From assembly GCA_903902515.1 (NCBI GenBank), contig CAIUVD010000069.1, forward strand, positions 11,475 through 75,474: DNA of 64,000 bases, written 5' to 3'. The stretch is from an uncultured Planctomycetota bacterium. GTDB taxonomy: Bacteria; Planctomycetota; UBA11346. Below are positions 12,132 to 63,981 of the stretch, piece by piece. The notes below the pieces were generated by a model. The model ran no database searches. It saw only the letters and a list, made by a program, of their open reading frames with translations, and was not told the origin of the DNA. The translations under genes and the position numbers were made by a program. The stretch's first letter is position 1; each line of letters opens with the position of its first letter.

Positions 12132-13315
12132 TAGCGCAGCCCTCCCGGGCCGGTGTAGCGGATCCGCCACAACTCGCCGGCGTTCACGGTCATGATTTTC
12201 TCGGCCGGTCCGCCCAGGGGGCCGTTGCGGGCCAGGTACCAGACGGTGCCGTCCGGGGCCACTTCCAGATCCGTGGGGGCGGCGATGCCGGCGGCGAAGG
12301 GGGTCGGCTGCTCGGGCTTGGCCGGGTCGAGGCTCTTGATCCACCCCTTGTAATCGGACCACAGGTAGCGGCCGCGGAAGGACGCCGGGAAGGCCCCCGG
12401 CCCCGGTTTGGCGGGCTCATAGAAATCACCGCCGGTGATGCACACCTTGTCCGTGCGGTAGGCCAGTTCGGCATCCCGGTAGGTTCCCAGGCCGGTCATG
12501 GTCCGGCCCTGGGACGGTCCATCGAAGCCCAGGGTGCCGCCGGGCCAACCGTAGTTGACCACGATGGGTGGAGCGGCGGTGTCGTAGCGGTTGATCTCCT
12601 CGTAGATCTGGCCGGCCTCGATGATGTAGAGCAGACCCGTCGAAGGTTGTACCGCCATGGTCCAGGCGTTGCGGAAGCCCAGACCGACGACTTGGGGCAG
12701 CAGGCTGGGTAGCGTGGGTTGGTCCTTCGGCACCGAGCCGTCGGGTCGAAGCCGCAATAGCTTGCCTTGCAACGTGGTGGGAGCCTGGGCTTGCGGACCG
12801 CGGGTGTTGTCCCCCGTCGAGACATAGAGATTCCCATCCTGTCCGAAGCGAATGCCGCCACCGATGTGGAAGGGCGCCCGCTGGCCTAACTCCGGCAAGG
12901 TGATGATCACCTCCTCTGAAGCCGGATCCGCCACCGAGCCGCGCAGGGTGAAGCGACTGACGCGGTTGTGGGGCTTCGGCTCCTTGGCGGTGTAATAGAG
13001 GTAGAGCCAGCCGTTGCGGGCAAACTGGGGGTCCAGGATCAGGGCCAGTAGCCCCCGTTCGCCCCAAGGATCCACTCGCGCCACGAGGTCCAACACCGGC
13101 GTCGTCTGGAGGGCCCCATCCTTGACCAGGCGCACCAGCCCGGTTTTTTCCAGCACGAACAGCCGCCCATCGGGGGCGAAGGTCATGGTGGTCGGATTGA
13201 GGCCGGTGGCGATGCGCTCCTCCTGGAACCCGTCGGGCAGTTGCGCCGCCGCCAGGGCCACCGGGAGCAGGAGGAGAAGGGAACGGAGACAGGCCGTGAA
13301 GGAGCGGAAAGGCAT
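12131..13315 (-). CDS. Soluble glucose/sorbosone dehydrogenase (GSDH)-family PQQ-type beta-propeller oxidoreductase
   Basis: Signal peptide. Motifs FAPDGRLFVLEKTGLVRLV, GERGLLALILDPQFARNGWLYLYYT, FHIGGGIRFGQDGNLYVSTGD, APDGTVWYL are typical of the GSDH family. Confidence 0.8.
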   Translation of the reverse strand: MPFRSFTACLRSLLLLLPVALAAAQLPDGFQEERIATGLNPTTMTFAPDGRLFVLEKTGLVRLVKDGALQTTPVLDLVARVDPWGERGLLALILDPQFARNGWLYLYYTAKEPKPHNRVSRFTLRGSVADPASEEVIITLPELGQRAPFHIGGGIRFGQDGNLYVSTGDNTRGPQAQAPTTLQGKLLRLRPDGSVPKDQPTLPSLLPQVVGLGFRNAWTMAVQPSTGLLYIIEAGQIYEEINRYDTAAPPIVVNYGWPGGTLGFDGPSQGRTMTGLGTYRDAELAYRTDKVCITGGDFYEPAKPGPGAFPASFRGRYLWSDYKGWIKSLDPAKPEQPTPFAAGIAAPTDLEVAPDGTVWYLARNGPLGGPAEKIMTVNAGELWRIRYTGPGGLR

Positions 13316-13500
13316 GTCATTCCGTCACCGGGGAGCCGGTCATCGTCACGGCGGGCTCTGGGACCGTTCCACGCGCGTGTCACACAAGCGGCCGCCCCGC
13401 GTTTTCGAGGACCGAATTTCCAGGCCGTGGTCAACGGCCTCGACCATGGCCAGTACCAATCCTTCCCTGCCACCGAGAGCAGACGAGGTTCACTGCTCAT

Positions 13501-14026
13501 GCAGGATGACAGGCATCGACCCGAGGAGACCGTCCGCATCACCGCCGTGCTAGCCGAGCAGACGGCGGACTTGCGGCGGTTTCTTGGTTTTCTGCTGCCC
13601 ACCGCCGATGCCGATGATGTCCTCCAGGACCTGACCGTGGCCGTGCTGGAGGATCCTGCCCCGGTGCTGACCGCCCTCCAACCGGGGGCCTACCTGCGGG
13701 GCATGGCCCGCAACCTCGCCCGGCAGCACCGTCGCCGCTTCCGTCGCCACGCCCTTATCGAGGACCTAGCCTGCGCCACCTGGACCCCCCTGGAGACCGA
13801 CGACGACGACCGCGAACGCACGGCCCTGGCCCGCTGCACCAGTACCATGCGTCCGGAAGTCCGGGAGATCATTGCCCTGCGCTATGGCGAAGGGCTCAGC
13901 GCCGAAGCCATCGCACCACGACTGGCCATGAGCAGCAGCGGAGTGCGGATGGCGCTGAAACGCGGCCGAGATGCTCTCCTACGCTGTGTCCAGCAACGAC
14001 TGAAAGACCTGCACCATGGCGAATGA
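13501..14026 (+). CDS. ECF-subfamily RNA polymerase sigma-70 factor
   Basis: Region-2-like LRRFLGFLLPTADADDVLQDLTVAVLE and region-4 HTH REIIALRYGEGLSAEAIAPRLAMSSSGVRMALKRGRDAL. The ATG at 13501 (MQDDRHRPE) is preferred over the tool start at 13241. Stop overlaps the next gene's start (ATGA). Confidence 0.85.
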
Positions 14027-15404
14027 TCCCTGCGCCAATCTGCGTCAACAGGTGTGGTCCGCCCTCGACGGCACCCTCAACGATGAACAGGCGGTGGCCC
14101 TTGCCCGCCATGTGGAGAGCTGCCCGGCCTGCCGGGAGCACTTCGCTGGGGCTGTTCGTCTGGAAGCCCGCCTGCGTCAGGATCCGCCACGGATGGCCAT
14201 CCGTTGGCGATGGTGGGCCTGGGTGGCGGCGGCGGCGAGTCTGCTGCTGGCCCTTGGCACCCTGGCCCTGTGGCCTGCGACCCCCCGGCCGGCCGCCGAC
14301 CAATGGGCGGTCCTAGTGGCTGGGCAGGCCCGGACAGCTGGCGGCGACCTGGGACCCGCCGATGGGCCACGCTTCCACCACAGCCTCCAGACCCTCACGG
14401 AGGTCCGTCTGGCCCTCCCCGATGGCACCCGCTGCATCCTCGCCCCCGGCAGCAGCCTGGCCGTCGATCCGGAACCGCCCCTGGGCCGGGCCCTGCGCCT
14501 GGAAGCCGGCCGCCTGACGGTGCAGGCCACCCGTCAGGATCCCACGGCACCCCGCATCTTCCGGACCCCGGCCGCCACGGTCACCGTGGTCGGGACCCGC
14601 TTCACCCTGGCCCATGCCCCCGCAACGGGCAGTTCCCTGCAGGTCGCAGAAGGCGCGGTCCGTCTGGCCGCCGTCGGTGCGCCGCCGGTCGTGGTCGAAG
14701 ACCGGGAACCGCGCACCATCCCCTGGCCCGCCCCCCAGTCCCTGGCGGCCTTCGCCGCCCCGACTCCGGAGCGCCTGGAGCGGGATACCCAGGGCCGGAT
14801 CACCGCCTGGACCAGTACAGATCCGGTGGTCCACGCCAGGATCAGCCGTGGCCGTGGGTATCCGCGACCGGTCCATGCCCTGGGCCGACCGGCCTTGCAG
14901 TTCTCGGGGCCGGCTGACCACCTCCAGGCCAACCTCCCGAGCCATGACCTTCGTCAGGGCCTGACGCTGCAGGTCGAGGCCTTGCCCGATCTGACCATCA
15001 CCAAGCCCATGACCCTGGTCTCCTACCGCATGCGGGACGGCGCCAGTCTGGACCTCGTGCTTACCCGCCAGCCGGCGGCACATCTGTTGGCTCTGATCCC
15101 GGACCAGGAACCCCTCGTCGTGCCCCTCGGCGAGCAGCCGCCGTCTCCCCTCCGGATCGTCTGCACCTGGGATGCCCATGGGCTGCTGACGCTGCGGACC
15201 CAGGCGGGCTTGGCCCAGGTGCGGACCACCATGGCGCCCACTGGCATGGGTACCGCCCAGATGGTCATCGGCGACCATGGCGGCAAGTCCCTGACCAAAG
15301 GCCAGACCGGATGGACCGGCGCCATTTTCAGCGTGTCGTTGACCGTCGGGACCATCCCCCAGCCCGTGCTGGAAACCTGGTTGGACACCGACACTGCCCC
15401 CTGA
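14016..15404 (+). CDS. Transmembrane anti-sigma factor (zinc-finger ZAS + FecR-like domain + ~250-aa C-terminal sensor domain)
   Basis: HVESCPACREHF zinc-binding anti-sigma motif. One TM helix (WWAWVAAAASLLLALGTLALW). FecR-like segment RLEAGRLTVQA...VVGTRFTL. Long periplasmic C-terminal extension. Co-transcribed with the ECF sigma gene. Confidence 0.8.
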   Translation: MANDPCANLRQQVWSALDGTLNDEQAVALARHVESCPACREHFAGAVRLEARLRQDPPRMAIRWRWWAWVAAAASLLLALGTLALWPATPRPAADQWAVLVAGQARTAGGDLGPADGPRFHHSLQTLTEVRLALPDGTRCILAPGSSLAVDPEPPLGRALRLEAGRLTVQATRQDPTAPRIFRTPAATVTVVGTRFTLAHAPATGSSLQVAEGAVRLAAVGAPPVVVEDREPRTIPWPAPQSLAAFAAPTPERLERDTQGRITAWTSTDPVVHARISRGRGYPRPVHALGRPALQFSGPADHLQANLPSHDLRQGLTLQVEALPDLTITKPMTLVSYRMRDGASLDLVLTRQPAAHLLALIPDQEPLVVPLGEQPPSPLRIVCTWDAHGLLTLRTQAGLAQVRTTMAPTGMGTAQMVIGDHGGKSLTKGQTGWTGAIFSVSLTVGTIPQPVLETWLDTDTAP

Positions 15405-15420
15405 CCCCTCGAAATGTCGC

Positions 15421-16038
15421 CTACGGCAAGACCCGGAACCCCGCCCAGCGGTAGGGGTCCGCCGCCGTGATCACCCCAGCGACCCGTTCGCGGGTGGCGA
15501 CGGTGAATGCCAGACAGGTGGCATGGTCGGCGGTGGCATCGCGCCAGCGGGCTAACCAGTCGAGGGCCGCCTGTTGGTCATCGGCACTCGGGATGACCAC
15601 CGTGAGGTGCTTGGCCAAGGCTAGACGACGGCCCCGTTCGGCGGCAAAGGCTGGATCGGTCCGGCGGGCGAGGTCCGTCAGGGCCGTAGCGACCTCGGTC
15701 GGGGTGGTGATCAGGGCTGGGCGGCGCAGGACCACGGCGGCCCACGCCCGCTGCAGACGGGGATGATCCGGATGCCCACGCCAATGGCGGGCCACCAGGG
15801 CATCGGCGGCCACGAACAGGGTTCCCGACGGCAACGGCGGCGGCTCGGGCACGAGGGTAGCCGGGCCACCATGGATGGCGGTGTCTGCCAGCCAGGGATC
15901 ATCCGTTGGATCTTCGCCCGCCACCACGGCCGCCAACTGGTCGCGGATCAATTCTGCCAGGGATTTTCCCTGGGCCTTGGCATGCCGGGCGGCGCGTTCG
16001 CGGAGGTCCGGAGGCAGGAGGATGGTGGTGCGGTCCAT
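15421..16038 (-). CDS. Single-chain RHH (VapB-like) antitoxin fused to a PIN (VapC-like) nuclease domain
   Basis: N-terminus MDRTTILLPPDLRERAARHAKAQGKSLAELIRDQL is a ribbon-helix-helix CopG/VapB signature. C-terminus ...DATADHATCLAFTVATRERVAGVITAADPYRWAGF resembles the PIN C-terminal conserved block. The ATG shares one base with the upstream Rieske gene's stop (TGATG). Confidence 0.55.
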   Translation of the reverse strand: MDRTTILLPPDLRERAARHAKAQGKSLAELIRDQLAAVVAGEDPTDDPWLADTAIHGGPATLVPEPPPLPSGTLFVAADALVARHWRGHPDHPRLQRAWAAVVLRRPALITTPTEVATALTDLARRTDPAFAAERGRRLALAKHLTVVIPSADDQQAALDWLARWRDATADHATCLAFTVATRERVAGVITAADPYRWAGFRVLP

Positions 16039-16307
16039 CACATGGGGTCCGGGGTCCGGGGTCCGGGGTCCGGGGTCGCGGGAAGTCGGGTCAGCCCTGG
16101 TTGTCCAGGGCCGGCGAGGCACTCGCCGGTGCGCGGGTCGAATACCGCACCGTGCAGGGAGCAGACCAGGTGGCCATCGAACAAACACTGGCCGTCACCG
16201 TAATCCAGGCCGATGCCGACGTGGGGGCAGGAGTTCAGCCAGCGGGCGATCTCGACCCCGTTCTCGCGGATGACGATGGCCTGGCGGCCGTCGGGCAGCG
16301 GGGCCAT
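16038..16307 (-). CDS. Small Rieske [2Fe-2S] ferredoxin-like protein (89 aa)
   Basis: CPHVGIGL...(17 residues)...CSLHGAVFDPRTGEC gives the CxH...CxxH Rieske ligand pattern. The C-terminal 13 residues (ATPDPGPRTPDPM) are encoded by the (GGGGTCC)n repeat. Confidence 0.55.
   Translation of the reverse strand: MAPLPDGRQAIVIRENGVEIARWLNSCPHVGIGLDYGDGQCLFDGHLVCSLHGAVFDPRTGECLAGPGQPGLTRLPATPDPGPRTPDPM
16044..16078. repeat. (GGGGTCC)x5 heptamer minisatellite, G-quadruplex-competent
   Basis: Direct reading GGGGTCCGGGGTCCGGGGTCCGGGGTCCGGGGTCG. Overlaps the 3' end of the Rieske ORF and abuts the PIN gene start. Confidence 0.9.
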
Positions 16308-16323
16308 GTCCTGGACCAACCCT

Positions 16324-16363
16324 TTCGGCTGGTGGACTTCCGGACTTCCGGACTTCCGGACTT
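16324..16363. repeat. (GGACTTCC)x4 octamer tandem repeat ending GGACCCTG
   Basis: GGACTTCCGGACTTCCGGACTTCCGGACTTCCGGACCCTG lies between the nadA stop (16376) and the Rieske start (16307). Its terminal GGACCCTGCCTCA matches the GGACCCTGACTCA terminus of the 28856-28955 array. Confidence 0.85.
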
Positions 16364-16375
16364 CCGGACCCTGCC

Positions 16376-17350
16376 TCATCCGACCGCCAGCATCCGTTCG
16401 ATCGGCAACCGGGCCCGCTCGATGAGGGTGGCGTCGAGGGTAATCTCGGGCCGACCCTCGGCCAGGCAGCGCCACAGCTTTTCGAGGGTGTTGAGGCGCA
16501 TGTGGGGGCAGGTGTTGCAGGACGTGCAGGAGCCGTCCTTGCTGCCCTTCACCGATGCGGGCGCTTCCAGGAACCGGGCCTTGGGCTGGGCCCGGCGCAT
16601 CTGGTGGATGATGCCGGGCTCGGTGACCACCAGATAGGTGCCATCGGCGGCGCCCTTCTTCACGGCTTCCAACAGGGCTTTGGTGCTGCCGACCACGTCC
16701 CCCAGGTCGCGCACGGTGGCGGGGCATTCGGGGTGGACGAGGGTGATGCAGCCGGGGTTGGCCTGCTTGAGGTCGATGATGGCCTGGGCCGAGAACAGCT
16801 CGTGGATTTCGCAGGAGCCTTCCCACAGCACCAGGTCGCGCCCGGTCTTCTGGCGCACGTAGTCGCCCAGGAAGCGGTCCGGGGCGAAAATGATGGGCTG
16901 GTCCTTCGGGATGCTCTCTACCACGGCCACGGCGTTGGAGGAGGTCACGCAGTAATCGGACAGGGCCTTCACCGCCGCCGAGGAATTGACGTAGGTCACG
17001 ACCACGTGCCCCGGGTGGGCGGCGACGAAGGCGGCGAACTCCTTGGCCGGGGCGGAATCCGCCAGGCTGCACCCGGCGGCCAGGTCCGGCAGCAACACCT
17101 GCCGCTGGGGCGAGAGGATCTTCGCGGTCTCTGCCATGAAGTGGACGCCGCAGAAAACGATGATGTCGGCCTTGGAATTGGCCGCCTCGCGGGCCAGTTG
17201 CAGACTATCGCCGATGAAGTCGGCCTGGTCCTGAATCTCGTCGGCCTGGTAGTAGTGGGCCAGGATGACGGCGTTCTTGGCCTTCTTGAGGCGCTGGATC
17301 TCGGCCGCCAGGTCGACGGGCGGGGTCAGGCGGGACAGGGGCAGGATCAT
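16376..17350 (-). CDS. nadA: Quinolinate synthase A
   Basis: Full-length match to the NadA fold: ...VILAHYYQADEIQDQADFIGDSL..., three repeated subdomains, and the CPHM/Cys cluster region (SCTSCNTCPHMR). Confidence 0.95.
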   Translation of the reverse strand: MILPLSRLTPPVDLAAEIQRLKKAKNAVILAHYYQADEIQDQADFIGDSLQLAREAANSKADIIVFCGVHFMAETAKILSPQRQVLLPDLAAGCSLADSAPAKEFAAFVAAHPGHVVVTYVNSSAAVKALSDYCVTSSNAVAVVESIPKDQPIIFAPDRFLGDYVRQKTGRDLVLWEGSCEIHELFSAQAIIDLKQANPGCITLVHPECPATVRDLGDVVGSTKALLEAVKKGAADGTYLVVTEPGIIHQMRRAQPKARFLEAPASVKGSKDGSCTSCNTCPHMRLNTLEKLWRCLAEGRPEITLDATLIERARLPIERMLAVG

Positions 17351-17409
17351 GGGCGGGAACGGTAGGCCCGCCCTTCCGCGCTCAATCGGCGCGCTACGGT
17401 GCCCGCCCC

Positions 17410-18207
17410 GTGGCTACCATCCTCGACCAGATCATCGACCACAAGCGCACCGAGATTGCCCGCCTGCCGGCGGTGGATCGCAAGGCCCTGTCCGAACTGC
17501 CCCCCACCCGGGGCTTCCGCGCGGCTCTTCAGCGGCCCAAGGGCGAACGCATTCGGGTGATTGCCGAGTGCAAGAAGGGCAGTCCCTCCAAGGGGATTTT
17601 CGTCGAGGACTACGACCCGGTCCTGACGGCCTATAAGTACCAGTTGGGCGGCGCGTCCTGCCTGTCGGTGCTGACGGACGAAAAGTTTTTCTTCGGCCAC
17701 GCCGACCACTTGAAGGCCGTCCACGCCCAGGTGTCCCTGCCGGCGATCCGCAAGGACTTCATCATCGACGACCGGCAGATCGCCCAGGCTCGCCAGTGGG
17801 GCGCCGACGCCGTGCTGCTGATTGCTGCCTGTCTGTCGGACGGGCAGATGGAGGACCTCCAGGGCCTGGCCTGGGACCTGGGCCTGGACGTCCTGGTCGA
17901 GGTCCACGACGCCGAGGAGGCGATGCGTGCCCTCAAGATCAAGGCCAACTTGGTGGGCGTGAACAATCGCAATCTCAAGGATTTCAGCATCAGCCTGAAG
18001 ACCACCTACGACCTGCTGCCGGCCCTCCTGGGCGGCGGGCGGGTGGTGGTATCTGAAAGCGGCATCAGCCACCGCGAGCAGTGCCATGAACTGGAGGAGG
18101 CCGGGGTGGACGCCGTGTTGGTCGGTGAGTCGCTTATCACCAGCGACGACCCCTCGGCAGCCCTCGCCAAACTGCGGGGCACCATCGTCCGTGGTACCCT
18201 CGGATAA
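17410..18207 (+). CDS. trpC: Indole-3-glycerol phosphate synthase
   Basis: ILDQIIDHKRTEIA, IAECKKGSPSKG, SVLTDEKFFFG, KDFIIDDRQI, VLLIAACL and ESGISHREQ are canonical TrpC motifs. Confidence 0.95.
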   Translation: MATILDQIIDHKRTEIARLPAVDRKALSELPPTRGFRAALQRPKGERIRVIAECKKGSPSKGIFVEDYDPVLTAYKYQLGGASCLSVLTDEKFFFGHADHLKAVHAQVSLPAIRKDFIIDDRQIAQARQWGADAVLLIAACLSDGQMEDLQGLAWDLGLDVLVEVHDAEEAMRALKIKANLVGVNNRNLKDFSISLKTTYDLLPALLGGGRVVVSESGISHREQCHELEEAGVDAVLVGESLITSDDPSAALAKLRGTIVRGTLG

Positions 18208-26893: not shown

Positions 26894-28756
26894 ATGGCAG
26901 GCTTCCTCGGCGATGATCAGGTGCGGCGCGTCAAGGACGCCATCGACATCGTGCAGTTGATGGGCGAGTACGCGGCCCTGCGCAAATCCGGCAAAACCTT
27001 CGCCTGCTGCTGCCCGTTCCATCAGGAGCGGTCCCCCAGTTGCTACGTCTACCCGGATACCCAGTCCTACTACTGCTTCGGCTGCCAGGCCCACGGTGAC
27101 GCCATCAGCCTGATCCGGGCCAAGGAGAACGTCAGTTTTACGGACGCCCTGGAGTTGCTGGCCCGCCGGGCCGGCATCACCCTGGTCTACGAGAACAGCC
27201 GGGGCAACGACCGGGGCGAGCGCGATACGTTGATCGCCGCCTGCAACTTCGCGACCCAGTTCTACGAGAAATGCCTGTGGGAGGACGACGGTGCCGCTGC
27301 CGCCCGGGCCTACCTGCTGGAACGCCGCCAACTGGCCAAAACCACCTGTGAACGGTTCCGCCTCGGCTGGTCCCCGGGCCGAGGGGCCCTGGTGGATGCG
27401 GCCAAGCGCAAGGGCCTCGACCCCCAGATTCTGGCTCGCCTGGATCTCGCGGTCGAGCGGGATGGCCGCCTGGTGGACCGCTTCTATGAACGGGTGATGT
27501 TCCCGATTTGCGACCGTTTTGGGAATCCCCTGGCCTTCAGTGCGCGCCTGCTGCCGGAGGCGGAAAAAGCCGCCAAGGAAGCCGGTCGTGGCGTCGGCAA
27601 ATACGTCAACAACACCGACACGCCGCTTTACCACAAGGGCAGCACGGTGTTCAACCTCCACCGTGCCCGGACCGTCGCCCGGGATGCCGGTCGATTAATC
27701 GTCATGGAGGGCCCGACGGATGTCATGGCCGCCGACCAGGCGGGCATCGGCGAATGCGTGGCCGTCCTTGGCACCGCCCTGACCCCCGAGCATGCCAAGC
27801 AGCTCGGTGCCCTGGTCGGCGACAAGGGGCGCCTGTTGCTGCTCCTCGACGGCGACCGGGCTGGTCAGACCAATGCCCTCAAAGGCATCCGCACCTGCCT
27901 CGCGGTGGGCGTCCCCGTGCGGGTGGCGATCCTGCCGGATGAGCTCGATCCGTCGGAACTCCTGGCCGAGGGCCCCGGCGGCGTCGCCTCGCCTGAGGCC
28001 AAGGCGACCTTTGAAAAAGTCCTGGCCAGCGCCCGGGCCGACCTCGACCACCTCCTGCGGGCCACGGCCCCCCGGCCCTACGATCTGGCCCGGGACGATC
28101 TGGTGCGGGCGGTGGACGAAATCCTGGCGGTGGTTCGGCCCATGCCCGACGCCGAACAGCGGACCCTGGCCCTGGGCGAGGTCGCCGAGTGGTTCAACCT
28201 CCCCAAGGACCGCCTGGCCAAACGCTTGGCGGAGGGGGCCCCAACGGCCACCGCCGCCGCCTCGCCCGAAGCCGCCGCCCCGCCCATCGAACCTCCGACC
28301 ACCGCCGGCGAAGTGGTCCTCCATCTGCTCGTTGCCCACCCGTCCCTGCGGGCCGTAGCCGCCGACGACCTGGGCCTAGAGCCCAGCCATCTGCCGACTC
28401 CGTGGTCCGACCTCCTCGGTGCCCTCCTGACCCTGCCGGACGCCGACCCCGACGCCCTGTGCGCTGCGGAGGGCGTCGCCACCCACGAGGGCCTCCAGGC
28501 CGCCGTCCGCCGCTGGGCCGCGACGCCCATCGACGCCCGCCTACGGGGCAACACCGCCCCCCGGCCCGAAGGCGACGACCTCCGCCCGGAACTGGAAAGC
28601 CGCATCCGCCAACTGCGCCGGGCGGCCATCGAGCACGACATCCACCGCCTGGGTGCCGAGATCAAGGACGCCGAACGGGCTCGGGATTTTGCGCGCATCA
28701 AGGCGCTGATGGTCGAACGTTCAGAGTACCAGCGGCAGGCGCGGGATTTGGCGTGA
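26894..28756 (+). CDS. dnaG: DNA primase
   Basis: CHC2 zinc finger (CCCPFHQERSPSCYV...CFGCQAHGD). TOPRIM domain (VMEGPTDVMA...LLLDGDRAGQ). Confidence 0.95.
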   Translation: MAGFLGDDQVRRVKDAIDIVQLMGEYAALRKSGKTFACCCPFHQERSPSCYVYPDTQSYYCFGCQAHGDAISLIRAKENVSFTDALELLARRAGITLVYENSRGNDRGERDTLIAACNFATQFYEKCLWEDDGAAAARAYLLERRQLAKTTCERFRLGWSPGRGALVDAAKRKGLDPQILARLDLAVERDGRLVDRFYERVMFPICDRFGNPLAFSARLLPEAEKAAKEAGRGVGKYVNNTDTPLYHKGSTVFNLHRARTVARDAGRLIVMEGPTDVMAADQAGIGECVAVLGTALTPEHAKQLGALVGDKGRLLLLLDGDRAGQTNALKGIRTCLAVGVPVRVAILPDELDPSELLAEGPGGVASPEAKATFEKVLASARADLDHLLRATAPRPYDLARDDLVRAVDEILAVVRPMPDAEQRTLALGEVAEWFNLPKDRLAKRLAEGAPTATAAASPEAAAPPIEPPTTAGEVVLHLLVAHPSLRAVAADDLGLEPSHLPTPWSDLLGALLTLPDADPDALCAAEGVATHEGLQAAVRRWAATPIDARLRGNTAPRPEGDDLRPELESRIRQLRRAAIEHDIHRLGAEIKDAERARDFARIKALMVERSEYQRQARDLA

Positions 28757-28855: not shown

Positions 28856-28955
28856 GGACCCCGGACCCCGGACCCCGGACCCCGGACCTGAAGTGACCCC
28901 GGACCCCGGACCCCGGACCCCGGACCTGAAGTGACCCCGGACCCCGGACCCTGAC
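28856..28955. repeat. Higher-order minisatellite: [(CCCCGGA)x4-CC-TGAAGTGA]x2 + truncated third copy; G-rich (G4-competent) on the minus strand
   Basis: Two identical 38-bp super-units plus CCCCGGACCCCGGACCCTGAC. Ends 1 nt before the ATPase stop codon at 28956-28958. Confidence 0.9.
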
Positions 28956-30140
28956 TCACCGATCCGAACTCGGCATCACCCGCCGCATGAACTGATCGAA
29001 CAACGGCACGGTGAACGCCAGGTCGCCGTGGGCCGGGCTGTAAATCATGCCCTTGGCGATCAGCTTGGCCCGCACGGGACCGACGCTGTTGACCTTCACC
29101 CCCATACGATCGGCGATGACCCCCACCCGCTGAGGTTCCGGCCCCAAGTCAGCCATGGCCCGCAGGAATCGTTTTTCGCTGGGGGTCAGGCGATCAAAGC
29201 GGACGCGGAAGAAGTTCTGGTCGAGGCGCTGTACGGCCACCGGAGTGGCCGCACGGACGACCTCGACCGTGATGTTCGGGGTCGGCGCACTGTTCCAGGC
29301 CTGGTACCCCCATTCCTGGACAAAATAGGGGTAGCCGGTGGTGAAGCGGAAGATCTCCGCCAGGGCTTCGGTGGTGAACGCGGCGTTGGCCGCCCGGGCG
29401 GGATCCTGAAGGGCCCGGGCGGAGTCGGACTGGGACAGGGCCCCGATGTCCGGGAAGGCGAACAGCCGTTCGGCGTAGGATTTCGATTCGCCGGCCAGGC
29501 CCGGCAGGATCGGCAAACCGGCCCCGATCAGCACCAGCGGAAGTTGCCGCTGCTGCATCTTGTGCATGGCCATGATGAGGGCGCCGAGCTCCTTGGCGGT
29601 GAAATACTGGACCTCGTCGATCAGCAGGGCGACGGCGACGCCCCGATCCTGGGCGGCCTCGGCCACCGCCACGAACAGGTGGGGGAGGTCGATTTCGATG
29701 TCGCCACTGTCGGCGGACCCGGTTTCAGGATCCACGTCAAGGGACAGGGACAGGTCCTGGAATTCGACCTTGATGGTGCCAATGAAACTCCGCAGGACCG
29801 ACAGGGCCCGGCGGACCCGATGCCCGGTCCCCGCGAGGCGACTGAGGTCGTAGAGCAGGGACCGGAGGTGGGGGGCCAGGAACGGTCCCAGGGGTTTGCC
29901 TTCGTGGGCTTCAATCAGGATGGCGCGGTAGTCAGCGGACTCTGCCAGACGATGGATCTCATTGAGCAGCACCGTCTTGCCGGTTCCCCGCAGGCCGGTC
30001 AGCAAGAGGCTTTTCTCGGCCTTTCCGGCCTTGATGCGGTGCAGCAGCACATGGGCCTGTTCCAGCACCGGCTGGCGACCGACGAGTTCGGGTGGCGGGG
30101 CGCCGGCACCGGGGGAAAACGGGTTAGCGATGGCATCCAT
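28956..30140 (-). CDS. Orphan AAA+ ATPase (Arch_ATPase/DUF234-like) with C-terminal winged-helix-like region
   Basis: Walker A LLTGLRGTGKTVLL. Walker B ALLIDEVQ. ~150-aa C-terminal domain with helix-rich DNA-binding character. Confidence 0.75.
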   Translation of the reverse strand: MDAIANPFSPGAGAPPPELVGRQPVLEQAHVLLHRIKAGKAEKSLLLTGLRGTGKTVLLNEIHRLAESADYRAILIEAHEGKPLGPFLAPHLRSLLYDLSRLAGTGHRVRRALSVLRSFIGTIKVEFQDLSLSLDVDPETGSADSGDIEIDLPHLFVAVAEAAQDRGVAVALLIDEVQYFTAKELGALIMAMHKMQQRQLPLVLIGAGLPILPGLAGESKSYAERLFAFPDIGALSQSDSARALQDPARAANAAFTTEALAEIFRFTTGYPYFVQEWGYQAWNSAPTPNITVEVVRAATPVAVQRLDQNFFRVRFDRLTPSEKRFLRAMADLGPEPQRVGVIADRMGVKVNSVGPVRAKLIAKGMIYSPAHGDLAFTVPLFDQFMRRVMPSSDR

Positions 30141-62672: not shown

Positions 62673-63146
62673 ATGCGTGTGACCCTGTTCTTGATCGGGA
62701 TGGCCCTGCTGGCTCCGATGCCGGTGTCGGCCGAGGTCACCACCACCCTCCAACTTGAGGCTCACGACGACGGTCTTCCGTCGGCTGGGCTCCAGTACCG
62801 CTGGTCGGTACTGGCGGCCCCGTCGGGTGGCCAGGTTCGCTTTACCCCCTCGGCCGAGGACCCGCAGCCCCAGGTGGCTTTCGACCTACCCGGGACCTAT
62901 CGCCTGGGGGTCGACGTCGGTGACGGTCATCTGACCACCCGCGCGTCGATGGAGATCGTGGTGCAGGCTTCATCGACGGTCACGACGCCGGAGGCCACCC
63001 AGGACACCTCCACCACGACGGATGCCGGTGGCGGATGTGGTGGCGGAAGTTCTCTGGCCATTCTGCTCGGGGCCTTGGGTCTGATCGGTTGCCTTAGCCG
63101 CCGCGCTTCGGCAGTTCCCTACCGAGGAACTTCACCACGGCCTTGA
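62673..63146 (+). CDS. Ig-like domain protein with Gly-rich linker and C-terminal TM anchor (PEP-CTERM-like but lacking PEP)
   Basis: Domain paralogous to the N-terminus of the previous gene (DDGLPSAGLQYRWSV...GTYRLGVDVGDGHLTT versus DDNLPRGNLTYTWSV...GTYKFRVEVYDGHLTT). C-terminus GGGCGGGSSLAILLGALGLIGCLSRRAS. Confidence 0.55.
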   Translation: MRVTLFLIGMALLAPMPVSAEVTTTLQLEAHDDGLPSAGLQYRWSVLAAPSGGQVRFTPSAEDPQPQVAFDLPGTYRLGVDVGDGHLTTRASMEIVVQASSTVTTPEATQDTSTTTDAGGGCGGGSSLAILLGALGLIGCLSRRASAVPYRGTSPRP

Positions 63147-63981
63147 GGTCTTCCCAGCAGGGCTTCTTGGCCGGGGGGTTTCGCAGCAAATAGGCGGGAT
63201 GGAAGGTCGGTAGCAGGGGGATGCCCCGCCAGTCCAGCATCTTGCCCCGCTGGGCGGTGATGCCGAGTTTGTCGTCGCCGGTCAGGGCCCGCAGGGGCGT
63301 GTTGCCGAGGGCCACGATGATCTTCGGTCGGATGGCCAGCAACTGCCGGTTCAGGTAGGGCAGGCAGGCGGCGACCTCGCCGGATTCCGGGGTGCGGTTG
63401 CCGGGCGGTCGGCATTTGACGACATTGGCGATGTACACGTCCTCGCGCCGGAACCCCATGGCCTGGATCATGGCCGTCAGCAGTTCCCCTGCCGCTCCAA
63501 CAAACGGCCGACCCTGGACGTCTTCATCGGCCCCCGGACCTTCGCCCACGAACACCAGTTCAGCGGCGGGATTGCCCTCGCCGGGCACGGTGTTGGTGCG
63601 GGTTTGGCACAGCCCGCAGGCCCGGCAGGCGGCGACCTGGGCGGCGATGGAGGTTAGTTCGGAGGCGGGTAATGGGGAGGGGGGAGGGTCGCCCCCGGTC
63701 CGGGGTCCGGGGTCCGGGGTCCGGGGTCTGGCGGGAACGATGATCGGTGGTGGTTCCGGCGTCGGTTCTGGGCTGTGGCTTCGCCCACGAGAGGTCGGGA
63801 GCACCGCTTGAGGATCCAGGAACTCCAGGCCAAAATCCTGGTCCAGGAGCAACTGTTCCCGCAAATCGGCCAACACCGATTCCCGATTATCGGGACCCCG
63901 GACCCCGGACCCCGGACCCCGGACATCATTACCCACCCTGCACCTCCATCCGCCCGCGAGCCGCCCGCCACAGCAGCACAT
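63094..63981 (-). CDS. Family-4 uracil-DNA glycosylase with N-terminal extension containing two (GGGGTCC)n-encoded tracts
   Basis: GEGPGADEDVQGRPFVGAAG and HPAYLLRNP motifs, plus the Cys cluster (CRACGLC...C), are UDG family 4. The N-terminal ~110 aa include VRGPGSGVRGPD and PRTPDPGPRTGG, which are encoded by the repeats. The true start is at or beyond 63981. Confidence 0.75.
   Translation of the reverse strand: MCCCGGRLAGGWRCRVGNDVRGPGSGVRGPDNRESVLADLREQLLLDQDFGLEFLDPQAVLPTSRGRSHSPEPTPEPPPIIVPARPRTPDPGPRTGGDPPPSPLPASELTSIAAQVAACRACGLCQTRTNTVPGEGNPAAELVFVGEGPGADEDVQGRPFVGAAGELLTAMIQAMGFRREDVYIANVVKCRPPGNRTPESGEVAACLPYLNRQLLAIRPKIIVALGNTPLRALTGDDKLGITAQRGKMLDWRGIPLLPTFHPAYLLRNPPAKKPCWEDLKAVVKFLGRELPKRGG
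63691..63722. repeat. (GGGGTCC)x4 heptamer repeat
   Basis: CCGGTCCGGGGTCCGGGGTCCGGGGTCCGGGGTCTGG. Lies inside the UDG N-terminal extension. Confidence 0.9.
63895..63925. repeat. (CCCCGGA)x4 heptamer repeat (opposite orientation)
   Basis: GGGACCCCGGACCCCGGACCCCGGACCCCGGACATC. Inverted relative to the 63691 copy 170 nt away. Confidence 0.9.

Follow-up and report, generated by a model that had tools for sequence, protein, structure and literature searches.

A single-chain VapB-VapC fusion behind nadA and a Rieske gene in an uncultured Planctomycetota bacterium, probably a domesticated toxin-antitoxin pair

The DNA analyzed here (the window) is a stretch of 64,000 nucleotides from contig CAIUVD010000069.1 of an uncultured Planctomycetota bacterium. 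In this report, we describe three consecutive genes on its minus strand: nadA, an open reading frame (ORF) for a Rieske [2Fe-2S] protein, and a 205-residue ORF, denoted the fusion, in which a ribbon-helix-helix (RHH) domain, a linker, and a PIN-like domain are joined in one chain. The features of these genes are collected in Table 1, with positions counted from the first letter of the window. The fusion gene is the last cistron of this nadA-Rieske-vapBC transcription unit, and the same gene order was found in contigs L001-L006 (L numbers denote the related contigs and loci used for comparison). The shared base between the Rieske stop codon and the ATG of the fusion, pointed out in the initial annotation of the sequence, was confirmed. 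This TGATG overlap is also found in L005 and L089, L092 and L093 have TAGGATG instead, and the closeness of the stop and start codons has been retained in every lineage with a Rieske gene. A 255-residue ORF with a GTG start (15421-16188) was rejected as the coding sequence since its start lies in another frame inside the Rieske gene and all of the homologues begin with M(D/E)RTT.

Table 1. Features of the nadA-Rieske-fusion unit in the window
Feature	Position	Strand	Basis or remark
nadA (quinolinate synthase)	16376-17350	minus	Pfam NadA, E = 8e-116; first gene of the unit
Overlap of nadA TGA and Rieske ATG (ATGA)	16376-16379	minus	Sequence
Rieske [2Fe-2S] ORF, 113 aa	16038-16379	minus	PF00355
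5' array, (GGAAGTCC)4.5 on the coding strand	16334-16369	minus	Tandem Repeats Finder (TRF) score 72; encodes the disordered Rieske N-terminal tail
3' array, (GGACCCC)5 on the coding strand	16044-16082	minus	TRF score 69; encodes the Rieske C-terminal tail TPDPGPRTPDP; stops 5 nt before the fusion ATG
TGATG, one base (A) common to the Rieske TGA and the fusion ATG	16036-16040	minus	Sequence, ORF coordinates
Fusion ORF, 205 aa	15421-16038	minus	RHH, Pro-rich segment, C-terminal domain
RHH DNA-binding domain, VapB type, residues 1-40	15919-16038	minus	RHH_5 match; homology to separate VapB genes
Former VapB toxin-binding segment and Pro-rich connector, residues 41-73	15820-15918	minus	Alignments; VapB ends ...IDPLYGDDAIWPAP*
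VapC20-type PIN fold, residues 74-205 and stop codon	15421-15819	minus	PDB profile search, Foldseek

The fusion protein starts with MDRTTILLPPDLRERAARHAKAQGKSLAELIRDQL..., continues through a proline-rich stretch at residues 59-72, and ends with the C-terminal domain. Of the three domains named in the initial annotation, the Rieske domain was recovered by Pfam above threshold, the RHH matches remained below it, and for the PIN domain (PF01850) there was no match in the window protein at E ≤ 1. At the N-terminus, RHH_5 matches with an E value of 3.5e-5 (23.9 bits, under the gathering score of 26) and RHH_1 with an E value of 0.0076, also under its gathering score; a search of NCBIfam returned sub-threshold RHH-type matches only. 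For residues 1-60, there are matches to numerous free-standing RHH antitoxins about 80 amino acids in length, with E values down to 2e-14, and the N-terminus is homologous to stand-alone VapB genes of 59-65 amino acids. The RHH-type antitoxin that is a feature of VapBC systems is present in the fusion. In the segment that follows, which corresponds to the toxin-binding part of VapB, D47-P-W-L-x-D52 and G57-G58 are invariant in the fused clade. Modeling had been proposed as a way to see whether this tail occupies the PIN active site. The AlphaFold model gives a VapC20-type PIN fold, and residues 51-70 of the VapB segment are predicted to be ordered, with a predicted local distance difference test (pLDDT) score of 84-87. 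Toxin-type and antitoxin-type domains are present together in one conserved polypeptide.

The assignment of the C-terminal domain to the PIN fold was made by profile and structure comparison. The closest unfused relatives pass PF01850 marginally (26.9-27.3 bits versus a gathering score of 23.6), and their match runs from profile position 10-14 to 109-110 of 120, skipping motifs I and IV that carry the first and last acids. A profile of the fusion family matched VapC20 from Mycobacterium tuberculosis with an E value of 5e-13 when used in hmmsearch against the PDB, and hhalign of the fusion family against 66 sequences of the wider family gave a probability of 99.9%. The AlphaFold model (pLDDT 84) was superimposed by Foldseek on VapC20 with a target TM-score of 0.89-0.90 and a root-mean-square deviation of 1.8 Å. 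The subsequent matches were to VapC26, VapC15, other VapC toxins, and PIN-domain proteins. The α/β/α Rossmann-like PIN fold is therefore found, whereas the Pfam gathering score for PIN is not reached.

PIN nucleases bind Mg2+/Mn2+ through four acidic residues (D, E, D, D/E), none of which stands at its canonical column in the fusion. These columns hold A77, T118, T174, and A193, and the same register was obtained with hmmsearch, hmmalign, and hhalign. The corresponding stretches of the family and the window protein are IFVDT/LFVAA, VLDET/EVATA, SFTDC/HATC, and FTFDxHF/TAADPY. In the 66 members of the wider family these columns are occupied by D (91%), E (95%), D (97%), and D (92%), and in the fused clade by A, T, T/A/R, and A. 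The unfused sister clade retains only the third Asp. According to the alignments, three of the four acids had been lost before the two clades split, and the fourth was lost within the fused clade. It had been suggested that the locus could encode an RNase module; with no acidic quartet that can be aligned, an outcome that the initial annotation itself counted against its reading, RNase activity is doubtful.

The identical 205-residue protein is encoded on 16 metagenome contigs. Six further proteins of 205-206 residues (64-96% identity) bring the family to seven sequences, and the fused ORF is retained in six diverged lineages. An assembly artifact or a recent frameshift was rejected on the basis of these occurrences. 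Nine other proteins of 136-145 amino acids align to residues 70-205 only, with 45-52% identity. In this unfused clade the gene order is nadA, a MarR/IclR-type gene, the Rieske gene (102-103 amino acids), vapB (59-65 amino acids, RHH), and vapC (140-145 amino acids), with a 4-nt overlap (ATGA) between vapB and vapC. L087 and L094 carry the whole order, of which the shorter contigs L095 and L096 show the downstream part; in L088, only the Rieske gene is missing from it. The separate VapB (MERTTILLPPALRERAGLLARERGMSLAELIRALLQEAIAREPEGPGIDPLYGDDAIWPAP*) aligns to residues 1-58 of the fusion, and the separate VapC starts with MSAPVFIVADVLVARH, compared with TLFVAADALVARH at residue 73 of the fusion. 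The former stop/start junction has thus been replaced by an in-frame proline-rich connector of about 15 residues. The description of the protein as a single-chain VapB-VapC fusion is borne out by these relatives, in which two overlapping genes at this locus encode the two parts separately (L087, L088, L094, and L096), an arrangement not found in the window or in the six homologues. The NadA proteins of the two clades, fused and unfused, share 78-81% identity. From the gene order and the alignments, we conclude that the fusion derives from an ancestral, vertically inherited vapB-vapC pair at the same syntenic site.

The MarR/IclR-type regulator of the unfused clade, of about 200 amino acids, lies between nadA and the Rieske gene (L087:1900-2490, L088:2196-2792, and L094:2881-3498) and has been lost in the fused clade, so that nadA directly overlaps the start of the Rieske gene (16370-16380 in the window). 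Two further proteins of the wider VapBC20-like family, both sporadic cases, combine parts of both partners. P0020 (134 amino acids) consists of an RHH antitoxin and the C-terminal half of a PIN domain, and in P0047, a 150-residue fragment, the tail of VapB reads, apparently via a frameshift, into a PIN domain with the canonical D and E.

The fused gene is under purifying selection. For the whole gene, the pairwise ratios of nonsynonymous to synonymous substitution rates (dN/dS) were 0.11-0.43 at dS values of 0.65-0.94, and a decaying pseudogene was rejected because these ratios are well under 1. The values were 0.03-0.12 for the RHH part among the closer lineages (up to 0.57 against the most divergent lineage, L089), 0.10-0.63 for the connector, and 0.12-0.43 for the PIN part. 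The RHH domain is the most constrained part of the fusion, and the PIN domain is constrained yet disarmed. Between the window and L005, NadA is 98% identical and the fusion proteins only 81%. The fusion is rare within its family. Among 1.84 billion representatives clustered at 50% identity, 274 clusters match the profile of the seven fusions, and the only one of these that matches over the full length is the clade itself; the others are PIN-only or RHH-only. A scan of species-representative genomes with the fusion-family alignment gave 205 pattern matches, none of which was upheld by tblastn, and the clade is absent from that set. As far as these sequence collections reach, the RHH-PIN fusion is a single small clade within its family.

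The Rieske domain matches PF00355 at 33.8 bits versus a gathering score of 20.3. The cluster ligands C51-P-H53 and C73-S-L-H76 are invariant in the alignment, and Foldseek with the model returned Rieske ferredoxins and Rieske domains of oxygenases at a probability of 1.0; both the CxH...CxxH ligands and the Rieske fold are present. The folded core comprises residues 21-100 (16080-16319) with a pLDDT of 89-95, and the array-encoded tails are at 52-64 (N-terminal tail about 52). The ORF had been described as 89 residues long with a repeat-encoded C-terminal tail. The tail was confirmed, and the start is most likely at 16379, giving 113 residues, rather than at 16307 (internal Met25). The upstream start is favored since gene callers give 113-115 residues in several contigs, no stop codon interrupts the frame from the ATGA in three lineages whose arrays differ considerably, and a strand at residues 21-27 of the model begins upstream of Met25 with a pLDDT of about 95. 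The ORF reads through the repeat in all of the repeat-bearing lineages and does not end before it.

The core of the Rieske protein (residues 26-100, approximately) is almost invariant in the fused clade, and both ends are shorter than those of the sister-clade orthologues of 102-118 residues. The N-terminal ...LHPNLDFSQITV... is absent and the C-terminal ...AVRVEAGAVVCD is replaced, which removes the first and last strands of the sister-clade protein. In L089, the C-terminal hairpin is already missing and there is no array, and thus the truncation preceded the expansion of the array. Sister-clade and more distant homologues conserve the Cys of the GGPC motif (Rieske residues 87-92), which is Gly (GPG) throughout the fused clade. 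A survey of the co-occurrence of Rieske and PIN genes, as suggested in the initial annotation, found the two together in most of the related lineages and adjacent in seven, with no obligate link: the Rieske gene is present without vapBC in L007, a Planctomycetales metagenome-assembled genome whose NadA is 81% identical to that of the window, and it is absent from L088 (unfused vapBC) and from L090, where the fusion follows nadA after a 58-nt spacer. Since either partner can be absent, the association reflects conserved ancestral synteny and not an obligate partnership. By gene order, the Rieske protein is an old neighbor of nadA and not a dedicated partner of the fusion.

Translation of the three genes may be coupled. 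No Shine-Dalgarno-like motif was found at the start codon of either the Rieske ORF or the fusion, and both start codons lie at the feet of a predicted RNA stem. In three distinct lineages, whose arrays cannot be aligned with one another, RNA folding predictions join the 5' arm to the 3' arm over the full length of the Rieske core, with z-scores of -3.8 (window), -7.2 (L005), and -5.5 (L092). In the 3' array, the G-rich sequence lies on the template strand, and the mRNA is C-rich at this position, (GGACCCC)5. In L005 (GGGGTCC/GGACCCC) and L092 (GAGGTCC/GGACCTC), each arm is the exact reverse complement of the other. A scan for promoters and terminators (15200-17600) found no internal site, a result that is weak since planctomycete promoters may differ, and an Rfam scan of 15000-17700 found no NAD+ riboswitch or other known RNA at E ≤ 1. 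Given the ATGA and TGATG overlaps, the lack of a Shine-Dalgarno-like motif, and the predicted long stem, coupled translation of nadA, the Rieske gene, and the fusion is a reasonable inference. Translation would be relayed from nadA to the Rieske ORF and then to the fusion, and the predicted stem would be opened only by a ribosome translating the Rieske ORF.

We propose that the last cistron of this unit encodes a disarmed, domesticated VapBC that probably acts as an RHH DNA-binding regulator and whose translation is coupled to that of nadA and the Rieske gene; we place the probability of this reading at roughly 0.55. VapBC complexes ordinarily bind their operator through the RHH dimer, with VapC serving as a co-repressor and oligomerization unit. 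The fusion protein would no longer be a releasable RNase toxin. Its RHH domain would dimerize and contact DNA, and the PIN domain, with the former antitoxin segment docked, would serve as an oligomerization or ligand module, as in the VapBC repressor complexes. A covalent link between a labile antitoxin and a toxin would be tolerated most easily after the toxin had become harmless. It is speculation that the fusion took over regulation from the lost MarR/IclR-type gene.

Several points weigh against this proposal. The regulatory role is drawn only by analogy, and no operator or DNA target was identified. Another acid is located within 1-3 residues of each of the lost ones (D79, E115, D171, and D194), and the first three of these do not vary within the fused clade. 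These four residues may form a re-registered active site. With regard to the coupling, the octamers of the 5' array in the window pair with the heptamers of the 3' array in 6-bp blocks only, and complementarity is therefore not strictly kept. A predicted outer stem between the 3' end of nadA and codons 2-7 of the fusion is not retained in L092, and the complementary arms could stem from the concerted evolution of a genome-wide repeat family rather than from selection at this locus.

This last point leads to the strongest alternative for the arrays, which we regard as only slightly short of an even chance: that they belong to a dispersed, self-propagating heptamer family that settles at gene boundaries with no function specific to this locus. 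The arrays would have eroded both ends of the Rieske gene, and the complementarity of the arms would mirror the family sequence in each genome. The array gives 18 matches in the window (0.54 expected), the same arrays are found at 28856-28951 and at 63697-63728 / 63893-63924, and at least 120 metagenome contigs carry at least four perfect GGACCCC units. The arrays are thus a dispersed element and not peculiar to this junction. Short spacers or unrelated small genes lie between inverted pairs, disorder is predicted for the array-encoded tails, and the 5' array of the window has drifted to an octamer with the 3' arm unchanged. What this explanation does not readily accommodate is that the frame is kept through both arrays in all of the lineages, that the stop codon remains next to the start codon, that 10 of the 11 inverted pairs have one orientation, which suggests some constraint, and that the predicted stems are very stable (z-scores from -3.8 to -7.2).

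The 5' array is replaced by (GGGGTCC)n in L005 (1393-1430) and by (GAGGTCC)n in L092 (694-730). Its units have changed in concert between close lineages, from the octamer GGAAGTCC in the window to the heptamers GGGGTCC in L005 and GAGGTCC in L092. With NadA 98% identical between the window and L005, this concerted change indicates a rapid turnover of units. The 11 inverted pairs were found in 80 fetched loci (L098-L177), with the common order being GGGGTCC...GGACCCC, and they enclose 32-115 nt or one whole small gene. Examples are at L103:1562-2039, L156:268-745, L098:540-988, and L177:4721-5923. Among the enclosed genes are those for a four-helix-bundle protein, of the type found in 23S intervening sequences (IVS), and for a small membrane protein; a dusB-like gene is flanked on each side by a hairpin element. 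Elsewhere in the window, the array at 28856-28951 is a compound direct array (38-nt period, 2.5 copies) that combines four GGACCCC units with CTGAAGT and occupies part of the 200 nt separating the convergent genes for dnaG (26894-28756, plus strand) and an AAA-ATPase (28956-30140, minus strand). The other is an inverted pair on the coding (minus) strand, with (GGGGTCC)4.6 at one end and (GGACCCC)4.6 at the other, about 165 nt apart. It is located at the 5' end of an ORF for a family-4 uracil-DNA glycosylase (63094-63981, minus strand) and is predicted to form a 31-bp RNA stem (z = -6.7). A literature search did not find the array sequence as a described bacterial element and returned nothing on heptanucleotide repeats in Planctomycetes.

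For the fusion protein itself, the alternative is an active single-chain toxin-antitoxin, in which the PIN domain would cut RNA using the shifted acids D79, E115, and D171, with or without D194, and the VapB segment would inhibit it in cis. Release would follow from proteolysis of the RHH domain or linker or from a displacing trigger, by a logic analogous to that of EzeT and CapRel. The invariance of the first three shifted acids is in keeping with such a toxin, as are the VapB toxin-binding motif, which is conserved and predicted to be ordered, and the purifying selection on the PIN part, and the closest solved relative, VapC20, is a genuine RNase toxin. Fused toxin-antitoxins are known in other families (PMC4963859, PMC9712102). 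We nevertheless consider an active toxin unlikely. All four canonical columns are non-acidic by three alignment methods, and the loss of these columns argues against a latent toxic activity in the fusion. The nearby acids differ by clade, being E115 and D171 in the fused clade and a D at -1 together with the canonical third D in the unfused clade, and at position 194 the fused clade itself has D, A, or E. This variation of the substitute acids between sister clades, and of position 194 within one of them, argues against a fixed catalytic geometry. The gene is at a stable, syntenic site in the core genome with no signs of mobility, and the PADLOC defense models gave no match for the fusion, the Rieske protein, or an unfused VapC.

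A more speculative possibility for the arrays, to which we would give rather long odds, is that (GGGGUCC)n...(GGACCCC)n pairs are undescribed, dispersed RNA "clamps" that bracket a cistron or start region. With the Rieske ORF enclosed by the stem, the start of the fused vapBC would be concealed, and the fusion would be made only when ribosomes arriving from nadA read through. The arms differ in a compensatory manner between lineages (GGGGUCC/GGACCCC versus GAGGUCC/GGACCUC), and the orientation bias across the metagenome pairs is 10:1.

The remaining explanation, put forward in the initial annotation, is a redox- or phase-regulated RNase module in which the Rieske cluster would sense the redox state and slippage of the heptamers would toggle the coupling, and this we regard as very improbable. 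The Rieske and vapBC genes are adjacent in seven lineages, the units of 7 and 8 nt mean that a change of one unit shifts the frame and alters the product, and in simulation a change of +1 or -2 units gives an in-frame Rieske-RHH-PIN protein of 321 or 314 residues. Against this, each partner is found alone (L090, L088, and L007) and the catalytic quartet is missing. The array copy number, taken from assembly consensus sequences, is the same in five near-identical contigs from different samples (the window and L001-L004), and no copy-number polymorphism was found among close relatives. L005 differs by exactly three units (21 nt), which keeps both the frame and the stop codon by the start codon. 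No triple fusion or run-on product was found in the databases. With the copy number fixed and the differences in frame, selection appears to preserve the frame and not to exploit slippage. The claim that a slippage-prone repeat controls the junction is further undercut by the dispersal of the arrays across the genome and by L089, which has no repeat and keeps the TGATG.

The unit has core genes as neighbors, namely trpC, dapF, and a pair of genes for an extracytoplasmic function (ECF) sigma factor and its anti-sigma factor. In the window, the ECF sigma factor (13241-14026, plus strand) and the FecR/zf-HC2 anti-sigma protein (14016-15404, plus strand) converge on the 3' end of the fusion gene, leaving a gap of 16 nt. 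In L005 and L006, the fusion gene is followed instead by another gene on the same strand.

If the proposed domestication is correct, this locus would provide a clear and datable example of how a toxin-antitoxin pair is retired. Three stages can be compared at the same syntenic locus: the wider family with the canonical set of acids, the two-gene sister clade with one of the four, and the fused clade with none, which is under purifying selection. The locus makes it testable whether gene fusion becomes possible once toxicity is lost and which role a "retired" VapBC takes on, transcriptional control of a nadA operon being one candidate. The inverted arrays bracketing the Rieske cistron are part of a widespread element with a possible influence on mRNA structure and translational coupling. 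Of all the elements described here, the array pairs have been explained least and are potentially the most novel.

The cyanobacterial heptameric short tandemly repeated repetitive (STRR) sequences and the repetitive extragenic palindromic (REP) sequences with their bacterial interspersed mosaic elements (BIME) are dispersed short repeat or hairpin elements. The arrays described here resemble them in having heptamer units, in forming short arrays at gene boundaries, and in having inverted copies able to form long hairpins. They differ in unit and host, in the strong orientation bias of the pairs, and in being able to bracket a whole cistron or to lie inside a coding sequence. The Rieske protein of the window shares the CxH...CxxH ligands and the Rieske fold with BphF, T4moC, and the NdoA ferredoxin. 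Unlike the oxygenase ferredoxins, it is shorter, its terminal strands are replaced by disordered tails encoded by the repeats, the Cys of the GGPC motif is Gly, there is no oxygenase partner nearby, and it is linked to nadA.

PIN domains without catalytic activity include Utp23, SMG5, and clusters marked "-" or "+/-" in the retrieved parts of the classification by Matelska et al. (2017, PMC5499597). As in these degenerate PIN domains, the fold of the fusion is kept under selection and the acids are lost. Those proteins are eukaryotic RNA-binding or scaffold proteins or are uncharacterized, whereas the fusion is bacterial, is of the VapC20 type, and is joined to its own antitoxin. No RHH-PIN single-chain fusion is described in the retrieved passages of that classification (PMC5499597) and of the survey by Makarova (2009). 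Single-chain toxin-antitoxins are known from other families, namely EzeT (zeta toxin), Slr1999 (HicA-HicB, Synechocystis), and CapRel-SJ46 (PMC4963859, PMC9712102), and Slr1999 has been read as the fusion of a bicistronic operon (PMC4963859). These proteins likewise contain toxin-type and antitoxin-type domains in one polypeptide. The fusion differs from them in belonging to the PIN toxin family, in being conserved in six diverged lineages, in having lost the catalytic residues, and in showing neither an evident mechanism of activation nor a defense context, with no PADLOC match.

The nearest known system is VapBC20 of M. tuberculosis, in which VapC20 cleaves the sarcin-ricin loop of 23S rRNA (PDB 5wz4/5wzf). 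The fusion has the VapC20-type PIN fold and an RHH antitoxin with a C-terminal toxin-binding segment, and its nearest relatives are ordinary vapB-vapC pairs with an ATGA overlap. In contrast to VapBC20, the chain is fused, the four acids are substituted, and the gene is found at a stable site behind nadA and the Rieske gene and not in a mobile or variable island. Judged by sequence and predicted structure, the fusion works like and descends from a VapBC20-type module, from which it departs in two defining features, the separate genes and the acidic quartet.

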